Source: an uncultured Fibrobacteraceae bacterium (GTDB lineage: Bacteria > Krumholzibacteriota > Krumholzibacteriia > LZORAL124-64-63). From it: a stretch of DNA of 64,000 bases. The notes beneath the pieces are model-generated. The model saw only the letters and a program-made list of their open reading frames with translations, was not told where the DNA came from and searched no databases. The stretch is taken from the NCBI GenBank assembly GCA_964637835.1, contig CAZWYF010000002.1:84614-148613 (forward strand), read 5' to 3'. The translations under genes were made by a program, and so were the position numbers. Shown piece after piece: positions 36,187 to 43,263 of this stretch. The first letter of the stretch is position 1; the number at the start of each line of letters is the position of its first letter.

Positions 36187-36821
36187 CGATGACCATGGCG
36201 GGGGGCCGAGGTCGGCCGGCACGGAAGACCTGGCGGGAGGAGATCCGGGGGGAAGAGATCCGGTGGGGGGTGTTCCGTCGGTGGTGAGCCAGGCTGGCGC
36301 CTGGAGGAGGTCGAGTCTCGTGGCCGCGAGGGTCGATCCGTCCTCCGAGGCGCTTCACCCGGTCGCAGAAGCGATCCGTTCTGTTCTGATTGTTCGCCAC
36401 CCGGGACGTTGCAAGCGGAGTGCCCGTTGCGAGTCGCCGTTCAATATTCTCAAGTCGTTCAAATACAATGACATGTGGCTGCACCGGCCGCCACCTCGCG
36501 CCGCGGGGACGCGGGGGTGTCAACGCCGTTGATACCCCCGGGGCTGAGCTTGTAACCTGCAGTGATATAATAACATGTGCGATAAACAAAGTTTCTGCCC
36601 GGAGGCCGCCCGCTGGAACCCGTTGCGAGAACGCTGATTCCAGGGCCGGCACGGCGACGGGGCCCCCCGGGGGGCCCCGTCCGCTCGCTGTCCGCTCGTT
36701 CCCTGGGATCCGGCCGCGGGGGAAAAGCCGGTGGCGGTCGCGGATCCGGCTTGTGTTACACTCGCCGGCCGTGTTTGTTCCAGCCGGTCTTCCGTCGCCC
36801 GTCCTCCGGGGAGATGCTGCC

Positions 36822-37775
36822 GTGTCCGAGCTCCGCCATGACGTCCTGCACCAGACCTGGGTGGTCCTGGCTCCCGGCCGGGGCGACCGCCCGCGGGACG
36901 TCCAGCTGCGGACCGAGCCGGCCGCCGCCGGTCCCTGCCCGTTCTGCCCCGGGCAGGAGGCGCAGACGCCTGCCGAGGTCCTGGCCACCGGCCGGCCAGA
37001 CGGCGTGCCGGCCGACCACCCGCCCTGGCGGGTGCGCGTGTTTCCCAACCGCTACCCGGCGGTGACCGGGGCGGCGGGCCGGCACGAGGTGGTGGTGCTC
37101 TCGCCCGACCACGAGCGCGGCCTGGCCGACCTCACCGGCGAGGAGGCGGCCGAGGTCCTCGCCGCGGTGCGGACGCGGATGGCGGAGCTGGAGAGACGGC
37201 CGGACCTGGCGGCGGTGACCTTCTTCCTCAACTCGGGGGCCGGCGCCGGCGCCAGCCTCAGCCATCCGCACGGGCAATTGCTGGCCACGCCGGCGGTGCC
37301 GGCGGTGCTGCGTGCCGAGCTGGGCGCCCTGGCCGCCTGGCGCCGGGACCGGGGGGAATGCCTGCTCTGCGCCGCGCCGGCAGCCGCCGACGTGGTGGCG
37401 GCCGGGCCGCTGGCCCTGGCGTTCGCCCCCCGGGCGAGCCGCTTCGCCTGGGAGACCCTGCTGATGCCGCGACGCCACGAGGCGCGCTTCACCGCCGCCA
37501 CCGACGCGGAGCTCGGCGCGGTGGCCAGCCTGCTGGTCCAGCTGGCGGCCGCGCTGCGCGTCGCGGCCGGTGATCCCGCTTACAATCTGGTCTTGCACAC
37601 CGCCCCGCCCGGGAGCGAGGATTTCCACTGGCACCTGGAGCTGATGCCGCGGCTGGCGCCGCTGGCCGGCTTCGAGGCGGGCACGGGGTTCTTCATCAAC
37701 CCGGTGGATCCGTCCCGGGCCGCCGCCGCCCTGCGGGCCCAGCTACCCGCGACCCCAGCGAGGACCGACCCATGA
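36822..37775 (+). CDS. GalT-like HIT-family nucleotidyltransferase (galactose-1-phosphate uridylyltransferase / ADP-glucose phosphorylase family)
   Basis: Zn-site 'CPFCPGQE'. Active-site 'SHPHGQLLATP' (HxHxQ). 'RVRVFPNRYPAV'. GTG start at 36822 after CCGGGGAG. ATGA overlap with glgA. The in-frame upstream extension to 36390 looks like non-coding translation. Confidence 0.7.
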   Translation: MSELRHDVLHQTWVVLAPGRGDRPRDVQLRTEPAAAGPCPFCPGQEAQTPAEVLATGRPDGVPADHPPWRVRVFPNRYPAVTGAAGRHEVVVLSPDHERGLADLTGEEAAEVLAAVRTRMAELERRPDLAAVTFFLNSGAGAGASLSHPHGQLLATPAVPAVLRAELGALAAWRRDRGECLLCAAPAAADVVAAGPLALAFAPRASRFAWETLLMPRRHEARFTAATDAELGAVASLLVQLAAALRVAAGDPAYNLVLHTAPPGSEDFHWHLELMPRLAPLAGFEAGTGFFINPVDPSRAAAALRAQLPATPARTDP

Positions 37776-39247
37776 GGATCCTGATGATCACCGCGGAGAT
37801 GGCGCCGCTGGTGAAGATCGGCGGCCTGGCCGACGTCACCGGGGCGCTGCCGGCCGCCCTGGCCGCCCACGGCCACGAGGTGCGGGTGGTGCTGCCGCTC
37901 TACGGCCATCTCGATCGCCGGGCGCAGGACCTGCAACCGCGCCCGGAGACCGGGCCGTTGCCCCTGCGCGTGGGGCAGGCCGTGCACACGGTACGCTTCT
38001 GGTCCTGGCCGGCGGCCCCGGCGGGGGTCCAGGTGGACCTGGTGGAGTGCCGGGACCTGTTCGGTCGTCCCGGGGTCTATGCCGATCCCGCAGGCGCGGT
38101 GTTCGGCGACACGCTCGAGCGGGCCAGCTGCCTCTGCGCCGCGGCCCTGGCCCTGCCCGAGCTGCTCGACTGGCCGGTGGACGTGGTCCACGCCCACGAC
38201 GTGCACGCCGCGCTGGCCCCCCACTACCGCGCCCACTGGTACGCCGGCCGCGAGCTGCCCGGCCCGGCGGCCACCATGCTGACCATCCACAACCTGGCCC
38301 ACCAGCAGCTCGAGCCGGCGGGCGCCATCGTCCGCGTGGGGCTGCCCCGCGAGCTGGCCGAGTATCCCGGTCCCTTCGAGTTCCACGGCCACTGCAACCT
38401 GCTGAAGGCCGGCATCCTGGCCGCCGACCACGTCAACACCGTCAGCCCCACCTACGCGCGGGAGGTGGTGGCCGACGCCACCGCCGGCTGTGGCCTGCAC
38501 GGCGTGCTCGCCGCGCGCGGCGAGGCCTTCGACGGCATCGTCAACGGTGTGGACACCCGCACCTGGGACCCCTCGCGCGACCGCCACCTGCCGGCGCGCT
38601 ACCACGCCCAGGACCTGGTGGGCAAGTCCGTCTGCCGGTCGCGACTGCTCCGTGACGCCGGCCTGGAGGAGGATCAGCGCCCGCTGCTGGGCGTGGTCAG
38701 CCGCCTGGTGCCGCAGAAGGGCATCGACCTGGTGTGCGACCTGCTGGATCGCCTGGTGGACGGGGGCTTCTCCCTGCTGGTCCTGGGGACGGGCGACGCG
38801 CCCCTGCACGAGCAGCTCGCCGCCGCGGCGGCCCGGCATCCGGGGCGGGTGGCCTTCCGTCCGGAGTTCAGCGAGTCGTGGGCCCATCGCATCTACGCCG
38901 GCAGCGACCTCTTCCTCATGCCCAGCCGCTTCGAGCCCTGCGGCCTGGGCCAGCTCTACGCCCTGCGCTACGGGACCTTGCCCGTGGTGCGCCGCACCGG
39001 CGGCCTGGCCGACACCATCGCCGACGTCGACACCGCCGGTGGCACCGGCTTCGTGTTCGACGAGCCCACGCCCGACGCCCTCTGGCAGGCCCTGGTGCGC
39101 GCCCGCGCCACCCGGGAGGACACCGTCCGCTGGCGCGCCATGCAGCGCCGCGGCATGCAGCGCGACGTCTCCTGGGAGATCAGCGCCGCCGCCTACGCCG
39201 CGCGCTACCGCCGGCTGGTCCCCGTCGCCGCGGAGGTGGCGCCATGA
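37772..39247 (+). CDS. glgA: Glycogen synthase (ADP-glucose type, GT5)
   Basis: 'MRILMITAEMAPLVKIGGLADVTGALP' canonical GlgA N-terminus. C-terminal 'SRFEPCGL' block. Confidence 0.92.
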   Translation: MRILMITAEMAPLVKIGGLADVTGALPAALAAHGHEVRVVLPLYGHLDRRAQDLQPRPETGPLPLRVGQAVHTVRFWSWPAAPAGVQVDLVECRDLFGRPGVYADPAGAVFGDTLERASCLCAAALALPELLDWPVDVVHAHDVHAALAPHYRAHWYAGRELPGPAATMLTIHNLAHQQLEPAGAIVRVGLPRELAEYPGPFEFHGHCNLLKAGILAADHVNTVSPTYAREVVADATAGCGLHGVLAARGEAFDGIVNGVDTRTWDPSRDRHLPARYHAQDLVGKSVCRSRLLRDAGLEEDQRPLLGVVSRLVPQKGIDLVCDLLDRLVDGGFSLLVLGTGDAPLHEQLAAAAARHPGRVAFRPEFSESWAHRIYAGSDLFLMPSRFEPCGLGQLYALRYGTLPVVRRTGGLADTIADVDTAGGTGFVFDEPTPDALWQALVRARATREDTVRWRAMQRRGMQRDVSWEISAAAYAARYRRLVPVAAEVAP

Positions 39248-40998
39248 ATGATCCCGTGACCCTCGATGAGCTCGCCCACCGCAGCCTGGCCGCCACCCAG
39301 ACGCCCCTGCTGGTGGTGGACGCCCGCTGGCGCGTGCTCCTGGCCAGCACCGGCGCCGGCCGTCTCTACGCCGAGGAGCCGGCGGACCTGGTGGGCCGAT
39401 CCCTGGAGGAGCTGGTCACCAGCACCGACCCGTTCGCAGGGTGCGACGACCCCGGCTGTCCCGACCGCGGGTGCGTCCGGCAGCTGGACCTGTGCGTGGG
39501 CGACGCCACCGTGGCCGCCGAGCTGCAGTGCGAGGCCTTCCGCGACGGCCAGGGACGGCTCCATCGCCTCCTGCTGATCCACGACGCCAGCGAGCTGGCC
39601 GCCCGCGACGCCATGCGTGCCGCCCGCCTGGCCAAGCTCAACCTGCTGAACCAGGTCTCGGAGGCCCTGTACGGCGCGCAGCTCTCCTTGCCCCAGGTGC
39701 TCGAGTCGGTGCTCATCGCCATGACCGCCGGCCAGGGCCTGCGCTTCAACCGCGCCTTCCTGCTGCTGGTGGACGAGCGCACCCGTTGCTTGCGCGGGGA
39801 GATCGCCATCGGCCCGAGCAGCCGCGAGGAGGCCGAGCGCATCTGGCGCGACCTGGCCGATCAGCCCACCGACCTCTACGAGATGATGACCAGCTACGAC
39901 CTCTCCCTCCGGGAGACCGACGTGGCGGTCAACAACATCGTCCGGCAGCTCTCCGTCTCCCTGGACGAGGGCCAGCACGTGCTCATCCGCGCGCTGCACG
40001 GTCGCCGCACGGTCCTGGTCACCGAGACCGACGACGGTCCGGGCACCGCCGACGTCCGTCGCTGGCTCGGCGTGGGCCGCTTCGCCGTGGCGCCCCTGGC
40101 CACCCGCCGCGGCGCCATCGGCGTGCTCATCGCCGACAATGCCATCAGCGGGCTGGAGATCACGGAGATGGACCTGGAGTTCCTCCAGCTCTTCGCCAAC
40201 CAGTCGGCCAACGCCATCGAGTCCTCCCGGCTGACCGAGGAGCTGGCGCGCAAGGTCCTGGACCTGCGCAAGGCCCAGCAGAAGCAGAAGGAGGACCAGC
40301 AGACCCTGCTGCGCATGGAGCGCCTGTCGGTCATGGGCGAGACCTCGGCCATCGTGGCCCACGAGCTGCGCAATCCCCTGGTGGCCATCGGCGGTTTCGC
40401 CCGGGCGCTGCTGCGCAGCCTGGAGGAGGACGACGCCAACCGGCAATACGCCCAGATCATCTCCGAGGAGGTGGCGCGCCTCGAGCGCATCATCCACGAC
40501 CTCCTCGACTTCATCCGGCCCCAGAAGATGATGCGTCGCAGCGTGGCTCCGGATACCATCGTGCAAGAAGTGGCACGAAAGATGCAGCCGACCCTGGACC
40601 ACGGGTCGGTGGCACTGCACCTCGACCTGCGGGCCGGGCCGGCGGAGGTCCACTGCCATCCCGGCGAGATCCAGCAGGTACTGCAGAACCTGGTGTTGAA
40701 CGCCGTCCAGGCCCAGCCGGACGGCGGGCGCATCCGCCTGGCGAGCCGGTCGCTCGAGGGCGGCGTGCTCATCCAGGTGGCGGATGACGGACCGGGGCTG
40801 GCCAGGGACGTGGCGGACAAGATGTTCTCGCCGTTCTTCACCACCAAGTCCGCGGGCTCGGGTCTGGGACTGACCATCTGCGCCCAGATCATCAAGGCCC
40901 ACGGCGGGGTGCTGCGGGGCGAGAACCTCGCCGACGGCGGCGCCAGCTTCAGCTTCATCCTGCCGCGACCAAAGCTGGAACCCGACCAGGGCGAGTAG
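39244..40998 (+). CDS. Cytoplasmic sensor histidine kinase (Cys-rich PAS-like region, GAF, HisKA, HATPase_c) embedded in the glycogen operon
   Basis: ATGA overlap with the glgA stop. No TM segment. 'FAGCDDPGCPDRGCVRQLDLCVGD...LQC' (5 Cys within 33 aa). GAF 'GRFAVAPLATRRGAIGVLIADN'. H-box 'VAHELRNPLVAIGGFARAL'. G-boxes 'VADDGPGL', 'GSGLGLTIC'. Confidence 0.85.
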   Translation: MNDPVTLDELAHRSLAATQTPLLVVDARWRVLLASTGAGRLYAEEPADLVGRSLEELVTSTDPFAGCDDPGCPDRGCVRQLDLCVGDATVAAELQCEAFRDGQGRLHRLLLIHDASELAARDAMRAARLAKLNLLNQVSEALYGAQLSLPQVLESVLIAMTAGQGLRFNRAFLLLVDERTRCLRGEIAIGPSSREEAERIWRDLADQPTDLYEMMTSYDLSLRETDVAVNNIVRQLSVSLDEGQHVLIRALHGRRTVLVTETDDGPGTADVRRWLGVGRFAVAPLATRRGAIGVLIADNAISGLEITEMDLEFLQLFANQSANAIESSRLTEELARKVLDLRKAQQKQKEDQQTLLRMERLSVMGETSAIVAHELRNPLVAIGGFARALLRSLEEDDANRQYAQIISEEVARLERIIHDLLDFIRPQKMMRRSVAPDTIVQEVARKMQPTLDHGSVALHLDLRAGPAEVHCHPGEIQQVLQNLVLNAVQAQPDGGRIRLASRSLEGGVLIQVADDGPGLARDVADKMFSPFFTTKSAGSGLGLTICAQIIKAHGGVLRGENLADGGASFSFILPRPKLEPDQGE

Positions 40999-41076
40999 AG
41001 TTTTCCTGGAACCGCAGCCGGCCATTTGCTAGCCTGCGAGTGGAGATCCTGGAACCCGCACGAAGGAGGGTGTTCC

Positions 41077-41445
41077 ATGGCCAAGGTCCTCATCGTCGAC
41101 GACGAACCGCATCTGCGCCTGCTCTACGAGACGGAACTCCGTCGAGCCGGCTACGAGACCATGACCGCGAGCAATGCCGAGCAGGGACTCGAGTACGTCC
41201 AGACCATGCAGCCGGATCTGGTGATCCTGGACATCCGCATGGCGGGGATGGATGGAATTGAGGCCTTGCAAAGGATCCTGGATATGGATAATACCATACC
41301 GGTGATCCTGAACACCGCCTACTCGAGCTATCGCGAGAACTACCTCACCTGGTCGGCCGACGCGTACATCACCAAGTCGTCGGATACCACGGCCCTGCTC
41401 GAGAAGGTCAAGGAACTGCTGCACGCGAAGACGGTCGAGAACTGA
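41077..41445 (+). CDS. Single-domain response regulator (REC only)
   Basis: GAAGGAGGG RBS. 'VLIVDDEPH', 'LVILDIRMAGMDG', 'VILNTAYS', 'YITKSS'. Confidence 0.85.
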   Translation: MAKVLIVDDEPHLRLLYETELRRAGYETMTASNAEQGLEYVQTMQPDLVILDIRMAGMDGIEALQRILDMDNTIPVILNTAYSSYRENYLTWSADAYITKSSDTTALLEKVKELLHAKTVEN

Positions 41446-41468: not shown

Positions 41469-42755
41469 ATGGCGAGCCCGCGGGCGCCGGGAGCATGGCC
41501 GGTGGATATTCTCGAACGCATACGTCGCACGCTGACCATCGTCCTGGCCGGCGGGCAGGGCGAACGCCTGTACCCGCTGACCAAGGACCGTTCCAAGCCC
41601 TCGGTCCCCTTCGGCGGGAACTACCGCATCATCGATTTCACCCTGTCCAACTGCTTCAACTCGGGCCTGCGGCGCATCTACGTGCTGACCCAGTACAAGA
41701 GCTACAGCCTGGACAAGCACCTGCAGCGCGGCTGGAACATCTTCAACTACGAGGCGGACGAGTTCCTCTACCGTATCCCCCCGCAGCATCGCGTGGGCAC
41801 CAAGTGGTACGAGGGCACCGCCGACGCCATCTACCACAACATCTATCTGCTGGAGAAGGACAAGCCGGAGCACGTCCTGGTCCTCTCGGGCGACCACGTC
41901 TACAAGATGGACTACGGGGACTTCATGACCTTCCACCTCGGCCACGGCGCGCCCTTCTCCCTGTGCGCGGCGGTGGTTCCCCGCGAGGGCGCCCATCACT
42001 TCGGCATCCTCGAGGTGGACGAGGACTGGCGGGTGATCGGCTACGAGGAGAAGCCGCCCAACCCCAAGACCATCCCCGGCGATCCCGAGCACTGCCTGGT
42101 CAACATGGGTGTCTACCTGGTGGACACCGAGTGCCTGGTCAAGGAGCTCTGCCACGACTCGCGGCGTACCGACAGCCACCACGATTTCGGCAAGAACATC
42201 ATCCCGCGGCTGGTCCAGCACGGCGAGGTCTTCGCCTACCCGTTCCGTGACGCCGGGAGTCGCGAACCCCTCTACTGGCGCGACATCGGGACCCTGGACA
42301 GCTTCTATGCGGCCGCCATGGACCTGCTCTCGCGCCGGCCGCCCCTGGACCTCTACGACCGCGACTGGCCGTTCCGGGCCTGGCAGCCGCCGGTCCCCCC
42401 GGCCAAGTCGGTGCACAGCTTCAACGAGGACGAGCCGCAACCCGGCATCCTGGCCAACTCCATCATCGGCGGCGGCTCGATCATCTCCGGCGCCCGCGTC
42501 GAGAAGTCCATCCTGCACCGCGGCGTGAAGGTGAACTCCTACGCCAAGGTCTCCGGGAGCATCCTCATGGACGGCGTGCAGGTGGGCCGTTACGCCGACC
42601 TGCACCGGGTGATCTGCGACAAGGACGTGGTGATCCCCGAGGGGCTGGTGATCGGCCGCGACCTGGAGCAGGACCGCGAGCTGTTCACCGTCACCCAGGA
42701 CGGTATCGTGGTGATCCCCAAGGAGATGGACCTCTCCGGCCTCGGCGGCGGTTGA
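41469..42755 (+). CDS. glgC: Glucose-1-phosphate adenylyltransferase
   Basis: 'IVLAGGQGERLYPLTKDRSKPSVPFGGNYRIIDFTLSNCFNSGLRRIYVLTQYKSYSL'. C-terminal left-handed beta-helix 'GGGSIISGARVEKSILHRGVKV'. Alternative GTG start at 41502. Confidence 0.92.
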   Translation: MASPRAPGAWPVDILERIRRTLTIVLAGGQGERLYPLTKDRSKPSVPFGGNYRIIDFTLSNCFNSGLRRIYVLTQYKSYSLDKHLQRGWNIFNYEADEFLYRIPPQHRVGTKWYEGTADAIYHNIYLLEKDKPEHVLVLSGDHVYKMDYGDFMTFHLGHGAPFSLCAAVVPREGAHHFGILEVDEDWRVIGYEEKPPNPKTIPGDPEHCLVNMGVYLVDTECLVKELCHDSRRTDSHHDFGKNIIPRLVQHGEVFAYPFRDAGSREPLYWRDIGTLDSFYAAAMDLLSRRPPLDLYDRDWPFRAWQPPVPPAKSVHSFNEDEPQPGILANSIIGGGSIISGARVEKSILHRGVKVNSYAKVSGSILMDGVQVGRYADLHRVICDKDVVIPEGLVIGRDLEQDRELFTVTQDGIVVIPKEMDLSGLGGG

Positions 42756-42855: not shown

Positions 42856-43263
42856 ATGACCGATCGACAGAATCCCCGCGACCGCGCTGGCCAGGGCGCC
42901 GACGAGTTCGACCTCACGGCGTCCGAGGTGGAGATCGCCCTGATCTGCCTGCGCTTCTTCCGTGGCGACTGGGACATGTACCTGGACTACCTCCAGGGTT
43001 CACGCGTCACGCCCGAACAGCGTCGCCGCGACCTGCCGCTGGTCGAATCCCTCCGCGACCGCGACCGCCGGACCGAGTTCCTCACCGCCTTCCTCGAGGA
43101 CGAGGTGGTGGCCCTGGCCCAGCGGCTCGGCTTCGACCAGCTCCTGAGGATCTGGGAGCACGCCCTCGAGCTCGACCCCGAGTCCGAGCCGTTTCCCGAG
43201 TTCCACGGCGAGGGCGCGGCCGAGGACGACGGGGGGGACGATGCGCCGACGACGTTGCACTGA
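42856..43263 (+). CDS. Hypothetical acidic protein (135 aa), possibly the last gene of the glg operon
   Basis: No recognisable motifs. C-terminus 'EGAAEDDGGDDAPTTLH'. Same strand, 100 bp after glgC. Confidence 0.4.
   Translation: MTDRQNPRDRAGQGADEFDLTASEVEIALICLRFFRGDWDMYLDYLQGSRVTPEQRRRDLPLVESLRDRDRRTEFLTAFLEDEVVALAQRLGFDQLLRIWEHALELDPESEPFPEFHGEGAAEDDGGDDAPTTLH

Follow-up and report, generated by a model that had tools for sequence, protein, structure and literature searches.

What does a group of closely spaced cysteines do in the N-terminal sensor region of a histidine kinase whose gene lies between two genes of glycogen synthesis? The question is raised by a stretch of 64,000 nucleotides (called 'the window' below; all coordinates refer to it) from an uncultured Fibrobacteraceae bacterium placed in the Krumholzibacteriota (contig CAZWYF010000002.1 of GenBank assembly GCA_964637835.1). 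The kinase is encoded as follows:

39244..40998, plus strand: sensor histidine kinase gene, 584 amino acids; PAS domain, J-alpha helix, GAF domain, long signalling helix, DHp and CA domains.

Judging from sequence comparison, four cysteines of the PAS domain (C67, C72, C77 and C96) probably bind a metal centre of some kind in a former cofactor pocket.

Translation of 39244-40998 (plus strand) bore out the five-cysteine peptide and the spacing that an earlier note on this DNA had described: residues 64-96 of the kinase read FAGCDDPGCPDRGCVRQLDLCVGDATVAAELQC, with cysteines at residues 67, 72, 77, 84 and 96 (C-x4-C-x4-C-x6-C-x11-C). Cysteine made up 0.91% of residues overall in the window's open reading frames (ORFs) with high GC content at third codon positions, which were taken as coding, and the region of residues 64-96 was the only 30-residue stretch with five cysteines in these ORFs, the runner-up having three. 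Five cysteines were reached in 1.75% of residue shuffles. The enrichment by composition was modestly significant, and the case therefore rests on conservation.

Cysteine counts and the alignment were based on the best 120 of 282 homologues, and the named homologues all belonged to Candidatus Krumholzibacteria or Krumholzibacteriota. The single positions are listed here with their codons, the lid loop and strands being those of the structural model described below:

39442..39444, plus strand: C67 (TGC), proposed ligand 1, in the lid loop; Cys in 93/120, a member of both four-cysteine sets.
39457..39459, plus strand: C72 (TGT), proposed ligand 2, in the lid loop, with Pro next; Cys in 36/120, elsewhere Cys at 73 (54/120).
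39472..39474, plus strand: C77 (TGC), proposed ligand 3, first residue of strand G; Cys in 32/120, with 7 more at 78.
39478..39480, plus strand: R79, predicted pocket-facing Arg two residues past C77; aligns with EcDOS Arg97.
39493..39495, plus strand: C84 (TGC), fifth cysteine, outside the conserved site; Cys in 3/120, usually Arg.
39529..39531, plus strand: C96 (TGC), proposed ligand 4, on central strand H; Cys in 113/120, at the top of PAS-core conservation after E93.

About 32 of the 41 nearest homologues retained C67, C72, C77 and C96. Two four-cysteine sets were found, one (67,72,77,96) in the window's clade (24 sequences plus variants), and the other (67,73,96,108), spaced C-x5-C-x(22-23)-C-x(n)-C, in 40 sequences over several deep clades, with position 108 on strand I, diagonal to C96. 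Mixed forms consisted of one hybrid (67,72,96,108) and several five-cysteine sequences (67,73,78,96,108), and the variable third ligand was always found on strand G or strand I, the neighbours of the strand that carries C96. Position 77, which was Cys in the window's clade, was Met in 49% of the other clade, Arg79 being conserved. The number of site cysteines per sequence was bimodal (four in 76, two in 30, three in 4 and five in 4 sequences, uncorrected for kinship). In the window's clade the cysteines, P73 (96%), G76 (100%), R79 and E93 were fixed, positions 68-71 and 74-75 had entropies of 2.1-3.0 bits, and the C67-to-C77 span was constant in the close clade. Across clades that were only about 50% identical, the four positions held while their neighbours varied freely. 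Arg was present at position 79 in 71 of 80 sequences with at least four site cysteines, versus 15 of 36 with two or fewer (Fisher p = 3e-7, uncorrected for kinship).

These data bear on the simplest alternative, namely that the cysteines have no specific function and are tolerated in a fast-evolving PAS domain that has become vestigial beside a conserved GAF sensor. Within the kinase family the GAF and kinase domains were far better conserved than the PAS domain, which was the least conserved part of the protein, and an incidental C84, the repeated loss of the set and an enrichment over composition of only p about 0.02 would all agree with such drift; it is nevertheless quite improbable in view of the four positions that stay fixed among freely varying neighbours, the bimodal counts of four or two, and a third-ligand position that was swapped rather than simply lost. 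The earlier note had tied its proposal to conservation of the cluster in orthologues, and this held in part: conserved four-cysteine sets exist, but their make-up differs from clade to clade, with at least five losses. All five cysteines as one motif was a reading that had to be rejected, C84 being found in few sequences (its position was Arg even in homologues 95% and 94% identical); since its strand parity is opposite to that of C77, it should face the other side of strand G and of the sheet.

A cysteine was also present at the alignment column of G39 (in the PAS C-alpha helix; GAC-RLL) in 17 of the 120 homologues; the window protein lacks it.

The location of the cysteines was derived from an AlphaFold2 (AF2) model of residues 1-143, built on 117 homologues (mean predicted local distance difference test score (pLDDT) 86.6). 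In this model the N-terminal domain is a genuine, canonical PAS fold, with a five-stranded antiparallel sheet (A, B, G, H, I), short flanking helices and likeness to solved PAS structures:

39292..39585, plus strand: PAS domain, about residues 17-114; strands A, B, G, H and I, short helices C, D and E, no F-alpha helix.
39424..39471, plus strand: cysteine-bearing lid loop, residues 61-76, taking the place of F-alpha; holds C67, C72, the near-invariant P73 and G76.

An N-cap helix (residues 7-17) preceded strands A (22-26), B (30-34), G (77-85), H (88-100) and I (106-114), and the lid loop comprised 16 residues with no regular structure by DSSP and a pLDDT of about 68. The segment from strand B to strand G was about 7 residues shorter than estimated for EcDOS. 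It numbered 43 residues, 3 fewer than in Bacillus licheniformis NreB (PMC13478379). Typical PAS domains are longer in this region, so that the cysteine stretch is no insertion, and the 'insert' of the earlier note had to be replaced by a loop that stands where F-alpha would be, in a segment shorter than in EcDOS and NreB. In the structure prediction of the N-terminal region, which that note had named as a check, the conserved cysteine positions are predicted to face the pocket of the PAS fold. The strand limits given by DSSP pair C77 with C96 across strands (77+96 = 85+88, with a two-residue turn at 86-87), and an equivalent register, M88 paired with C108, was seen in the full-length model of a 55%-identical homologue. 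From strand register, topology and homology to EcDOS we infer that C67, C72, C77 and C96 converge on the former cofactor pocket.

A cross-strand C77-C96 neighbourhood would also suit a metal-free thiol/disulfide switch, of which C77-C96 between strands G and H plus C67-C72 in the loop would be one example; once oxidised, the PAS domain would be locked or distorted, on the model of ArcB. Cysteines of the cytoplasmic PAS domain of ArcB control kinase activity by redox state, although there they are two in number and form intermolecular disulfides on quinones, with no four-cysteine cluster and in a sequence unrelated to the window kinase. The preference for even numbers of cysteines (four or two) and the persistence of two-cysteine forms in many lineages agree with a switch of this kind, but the surviving pairs, mostly (67,96) or (96,108) and more rarely (73,96) or (67,108), differ from the disulfide pairs predicted. 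The swap of the third ligand between strands G and I at a constant total of four fits a shared centre better than fixed pairs; the kinase is moreover cytoplasmic, its lineage has been recovered largely from anoxic habitats, and two of the homologue loci examined (L004 and L005) carried pyruvate:ferredoxin oxidoreductase genes. A disulfide switch was considered improbable.

The ancestry of the pocket was addressed by searches against the PDB. Single sequences (the window PAS and a PAS from a distant clade) gave nothing significant, and only a family profile reached PAS structures, with the best match to PAS-A of human PAS kinase (1LL8, E = 4.5e-7) and an alignment over the whole domain to EcDOS (1v9y, E = 0.037). 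The haem PAS domains of EcDOS (DosP) and FixL were among the best structural matches of the model; the profile matches to them were weak. Positions 77, 79, 81 and 96 align with EcDOS Met95, Arg97, Leu99 and Leu115, the M/C-x-R-x-L of strand G corresponding to Met95-x-Arg97-x-Leu99 (the aligned range agrees with 1v9y). We take these four EcDOS residues to line the distal haem pocket, with Met95 as the distal haem ligand. EcDOS and FixL differ in that their proximal His is on F-alpha, whereas the window PAS has no helix at 61-76 and has cysteines at pocket-lining positions; six residues were missing in the kinase family where EcDOS has its proximal His77.

A haem with Cys or Met axial ligation could be assembled from such a DOS-type distal pocket (Met/Cys 77, Arg79) and a loop cysteine, for example that of Cys-Pro 72-73. 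Haem PAS domains as best structural matches, the alignment of M/C77-x-R79 with EcDOS Met95-x-Arg97 and the role of Cys-Pro as a haem-regulatory motif all lead in this direction, yet the F-alpha helix and the proximal His are absent, the lid falls short of that of EcDOS by about 7 residues and Cys-Pro is absent from the larger clade. One or two ligands would suffice for haem, leaving a conserved set of four unexplained, and this alternative was regarded as very improbable. The protein behind the best profile match, human PAS kinase, differs from the window kinase in being a Ser/Thr kinase, and its PAS-A has no cysteine set or metal. PAS kinase regulates glycogen synthase in eukaryotes, and the glycogen link that the two proteins share is most likely a coincidence.

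A four-thiolate metal centre was preferred because the count is fixed at four with swappable positions, because the set decays quickly to two once broken, and because the spacers are hypervariable and the geometry faces the pocket. The Fe-S or zinc ligands suggested in the earlier note stood to this extent, conservation and topology being those of metal or Fe-S ligands, with the reservation that only four of the five cysteines are conserved. As the likeliest occupant of the four-cysteine pocket we tentatively propose a labile iron-sulfur (Fe-S) cluster, a possibility that was favoured over zinc because of the NreB precedent, because Fe-S PAS domains lie within the haem PAS cluster, and because the cysteine pattern is ferredoxin- or Rrf2-like; zinc ranked close behind. 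Plant-type [2Fe-2S] ferredoxins (C-x4-C-x2-C-x29-C) and Rrf2 regulators (C-x5-C-x5-C) recall the pattern of three loop cysteines plus one remote cysteine.

In a census of PAS domains, the Fe-S PAS domains fell within the haem PAS cluster, and no PAS family other than NreB was described there as having an iron-sulfur cofactor (PMC10468136). The NreB PAS domain holds a [4Fe-4S] cluster via CX2CX11CX2C in S. carnosus and a [2Fe-2S] cluster via CX2CX11C in B. licheniformis, and kinase activity is abolished by cluster loss (PMC13478379). Like the window protein, NreB is a cytoplasmic histidine kinase with an N-terminal PAS domain, three or four conserved cysteines over the cofactor pocket, and a helical lid largely replaced by loops. 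It differs in that all of its ligands come from the E/F lid, whereas the C-x4-C-x4-C-x18-C of the window kinase would provide two lid and two sheet-floor ligands, and in that its cluster has been demonstrated, the cofactor of the window kinase being proposed from sequence and model. NreB pairs with a NarL-type DNA-binding regulator (NreC). It has no GAF domain. Its core is of the HisKA_3 type (PMC13478379), whereas the window kinase has a GAF domain, a HisKA core (PF00512) and a stand-alone receiver. Membership of the NreB family was rejected, as motif (CX2CX11C(X2C)), kinase class and partner type all differ; the cysteine site, if functional, is plausibly a variant independent of NreB. Among 1.84 billion cluster representatives scanned, no cysteine-bearing PAS was found outside the kinase family, and nine further hits that reached into the PAS region (GAF-type matches) had no such cysteine set in the PAS.

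The nearest counterpart with zinc is the cytoplasmic PAS domain of WalK, in which bound zinc modulates the histidine kinase, His271 being named as a zinc-site residue (PMC6624279). The family profile matched 4mn5 weakly. The ligands of the WalK zinc site are presumably His, Asp and Glu, with no four-cysteine pocket set.

A structural Zn(Cys)4 site would hold the loop that replaces F-alpha and have no sensory role, lineages that lack the site stabilising the loop otherwise. It draws on the same evidence for four clustered ligands, and zinc knuckles often have their cysteines in Gly-Cys and Cys-Pro contexts. The set was at times lost together with loop changes (a deletion of five amino acids in P0027 and P0032, and insertions in P0030, P0031 and P0033), and such a coincidence with repeated independent loss would be natural for a structural site, as would an operon context that is independent of the site; forms with and without the cysteines are known for other structural-zinc proteins. 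Less easily reconciled with it are the lack in the kinase PAS of CxxC knuckles, two of which usually supply the four thiolates of such a site (within about 4 A of a common centre), the provision of two ligands by adjacent beta-strands of the sheet floor, a pLDDT of about 68 for the loop where AF2 is usually confident on classical zinc sites, and a position exactly in the sensory pocket of the PAS fold. On balance, a purely structural zinc site was judged doubtful.

Several observations weigh against the proposal of a sensory Fe-S cluster. The lid loop had a pLDDT of only about 65-75 in both models (the window PAS and the 55%-identical homologue), and the proximity of the four cysteines derives from strand register and homology. 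Among established Fe-S and Zn motifs none has the spacing seen here, the motif of NreB is missing, and no Fe-S-specific signature can be read from the sequence, by which Fe-S and zinc are indistinguishable. A neighbour-joining tree of the GAF and kinase part gave at least five independent losses of the cysteine set, and three or fewer site cysteines were present in 40 of the 120 homologues; such recurrent loss characterises structural zinc sites no less than it does sensory clusters. Both the site-count and the R79 statistics ignore phylogeny. Two low-cysteine homologues whose loci were examined (P0045 and P0112) keep the same operon context, and the main sensor would seem to be the GAF domain, whose conservation greatly exceeds that of the PAS domain.

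If an Fe-S cluster does occupy the pocket, the metal centre would fasten the lid loop to the beta-sheet at strands G and H (or I), and upon its oxidation, its loss or an exchange of ligands (O2, reactive oxygen species, NO or sulfide) the lid would come loose and the sheet would be altered. From the sheet the change would travel through the J-alpha helix to the GAF domain and on to the long signalling helix and alter autophosphorylation; the kinase would then determine how far the neighbouring stand-alone receiver is phosphorylated. As the receiver lacks a DNA-binding output, its action on glycogen synthesis would most likely be by protein-protein contact or phosphorelay. The full proposition is that of an undescribed class of Fe-S PAS sensor, which arose from DOS/FixL haem PAS domains by deletion of F-alpha, whose cluster (67, 72/73, 96, and 77 or 108) bridges lid and sheet, and which passes O2, redox or sulfide signals through the GAF kinase and the receiver to a post-translational control of glycogen across the Krumholzibacteriota; with all of its parts taken together, it must be called speculative and rather unlikely.

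Besides the kinase, the locus includes the following genes:

37772..39247, plus strand: glgA, glycogen synthase, directly upstream of the kinase; assigned by Glyco_transf_5 (2.4e-66) and synteny.
41077..41445, plus strand: stand-alone CheY-like receiver, 122 amino acids, no output domain; Response_reg 3.2e-27; 78 nt downstream of the kinase, its presumed partner.
41469..42755, plus strand: glgC, ADP-glucose pyrophosphorylase, directly downstream of the receiver; assigned by NTP_transferase (4.9e-56) plus a hexapeptide domain and by synteny.

The receiver sequence has the full set of phospho-acceptor residues, and a receiver was found at the same position in L001-L005, the Krumholzibacteriota loci examined, in every one of which kinase and receiver lay between glgA and glgC. 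The order GalT/HIT-like gene, glgA, kinase, receiver, glgC was kept in the loci of homologues 75%, 55%, 51% and 51% identical; a small unannotated ORF followed glgC in three of these four, and a GH57 gene lay upstream in two of the four. Because gene order is conserved across loci, the label 'glycogen-operon kinase' is well supported, and the placement given in the earlier note (a PAS domain N-terminal to GAF in a histidine kinase of a glycogen operon) agreed with the model, with Pfam and with phylum-wide synteny. Control of glycogen storage by the kinase is what we infer from gene order. The same order is kept with or without the cysteines, also in the loci of homologues that have only two or three of the site cysteines, so that the cysteine site would be an accessory input to the kinase, and at least five losses with an unchanged context indicate that the kinase does not need the site for its core role.

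The kinase frame was taken as the real one because of one database protein that is 100% identical, the 282 homologues, and an ATGA in which the kinase ATG overlaps the glgA stop by 4 nt (window 39244-39247; also 6001-6004 in L001, and in other homologous loci). By its sequence, the 4-nt overlap suggests translational coupling of glgA and kinase. Downstream of the PAS domain the protein is made up as follows:

39586..39669, plus strand: J-alpha linker helix, residues 115-142, from PAS to GAF; invariant R125, R128 and N136.
39688..40221, plus strand: GAF domain, about residues 149-326; Pfam GAF, GAF_2 and GAF_3.
40336..40971, plus strand: kinase core; HisKA at residues 365-425 with H-box AHELRNP, HATPase_c at residues 475-576.

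Pfam returned HisKA (1.7e-14), HATPase_c (7e-24) and GAF (2.8e-07), while the PAS models stayed below threshold (PAS 18.7 bits against a gathering cut-off of 22.6, PAS_4 19.1 bits against 23.1); precomputed PAS hits were present in some of the homologues, and at the sequence level the kinase PAS is a divergent member of the PAS families. With the H-box His in its HisKA domain, its HATPase_c domain and a receiver gene next to it, the kinase belongs to a two-component system of the HisKA class, and the full-length model of the 55%-identical homologue had the same domain order as the window kinase. Neither the kinase nor the receiver nor the small downstream ORF passed the cut-off of any NCBIfam family, the models nearest to the kinase (AtoS and ZraS) being far below theirs. 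The GAF domain carries the motif QGLRFNRAFLLL...GPS..EEA.RIW and dozens of near-invariant columns, and its type is widespread (1132 cluster representatives at E < 1e-10, in the 1.84 billion scanned). The conserved GAF domain is likely the primary ligand sensor of the kinase.

Searches of the literature on glycogen-operon kinases, on glycogen regulation in Krumholzibacteria and on four-cysteine or zinc PAS domains found no prior description, and no two-component system built into a glycogen operon (glgA, kinase, receiver, glgC) was described in the literature searched. An Fe-S cluster at this site would, if true, be a second, independently evolved Fe-S arrangement in a PAS domain, showing how a haem pocket is converted to a cluster site, and ligands shared by lid and sheet would give a direct mechanical route from cofactor state to signalling helix; were the site a structural zinc, the finding would be ordinary. 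The glgA-kinase-receiver-glgC arrangement is kept across an uncultured phylum and would couple the storage of an energy reserve to an intracellular signal; with a receiver that has no DNA-binding domain, it would allow a test of whether bacteria control glycogen synthesis post-translationally.

Promoter-like sites were absent from a scan of 35.5-44 kb, which gave only five weak terminator-like matches. An ORF of 135 amino acids (42856-43263, plus strand) directly follows glgC and has a counterpart of 140-146 amino acids at the same position in L001, L004 and L005; it had no Pfam or NCBIfam match and may belong to the operon. Upstream of glgA, the GalT/HIT-like (DUF4921) gene was called mechanically as an ORF of 461 amino acids from TTG (36390-37775, plus strand), and since its homologues have 321-356 amino acids, translation probably starts about 100-140 codons further downstream; the family is similar to UDP-glucose-hexose-1-phosphate uridylyltransferase, with a score far under the cut-off. 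Two long ORFs overlap the kinase gene in other frames, 39205-41025 on the minus strand (606 amino acids) and 39441-40787 on the plus strand (448 amino acids); such antisense and other-frame ORFs are shadow ORFs typical of DNA with 71% GC and not genes.

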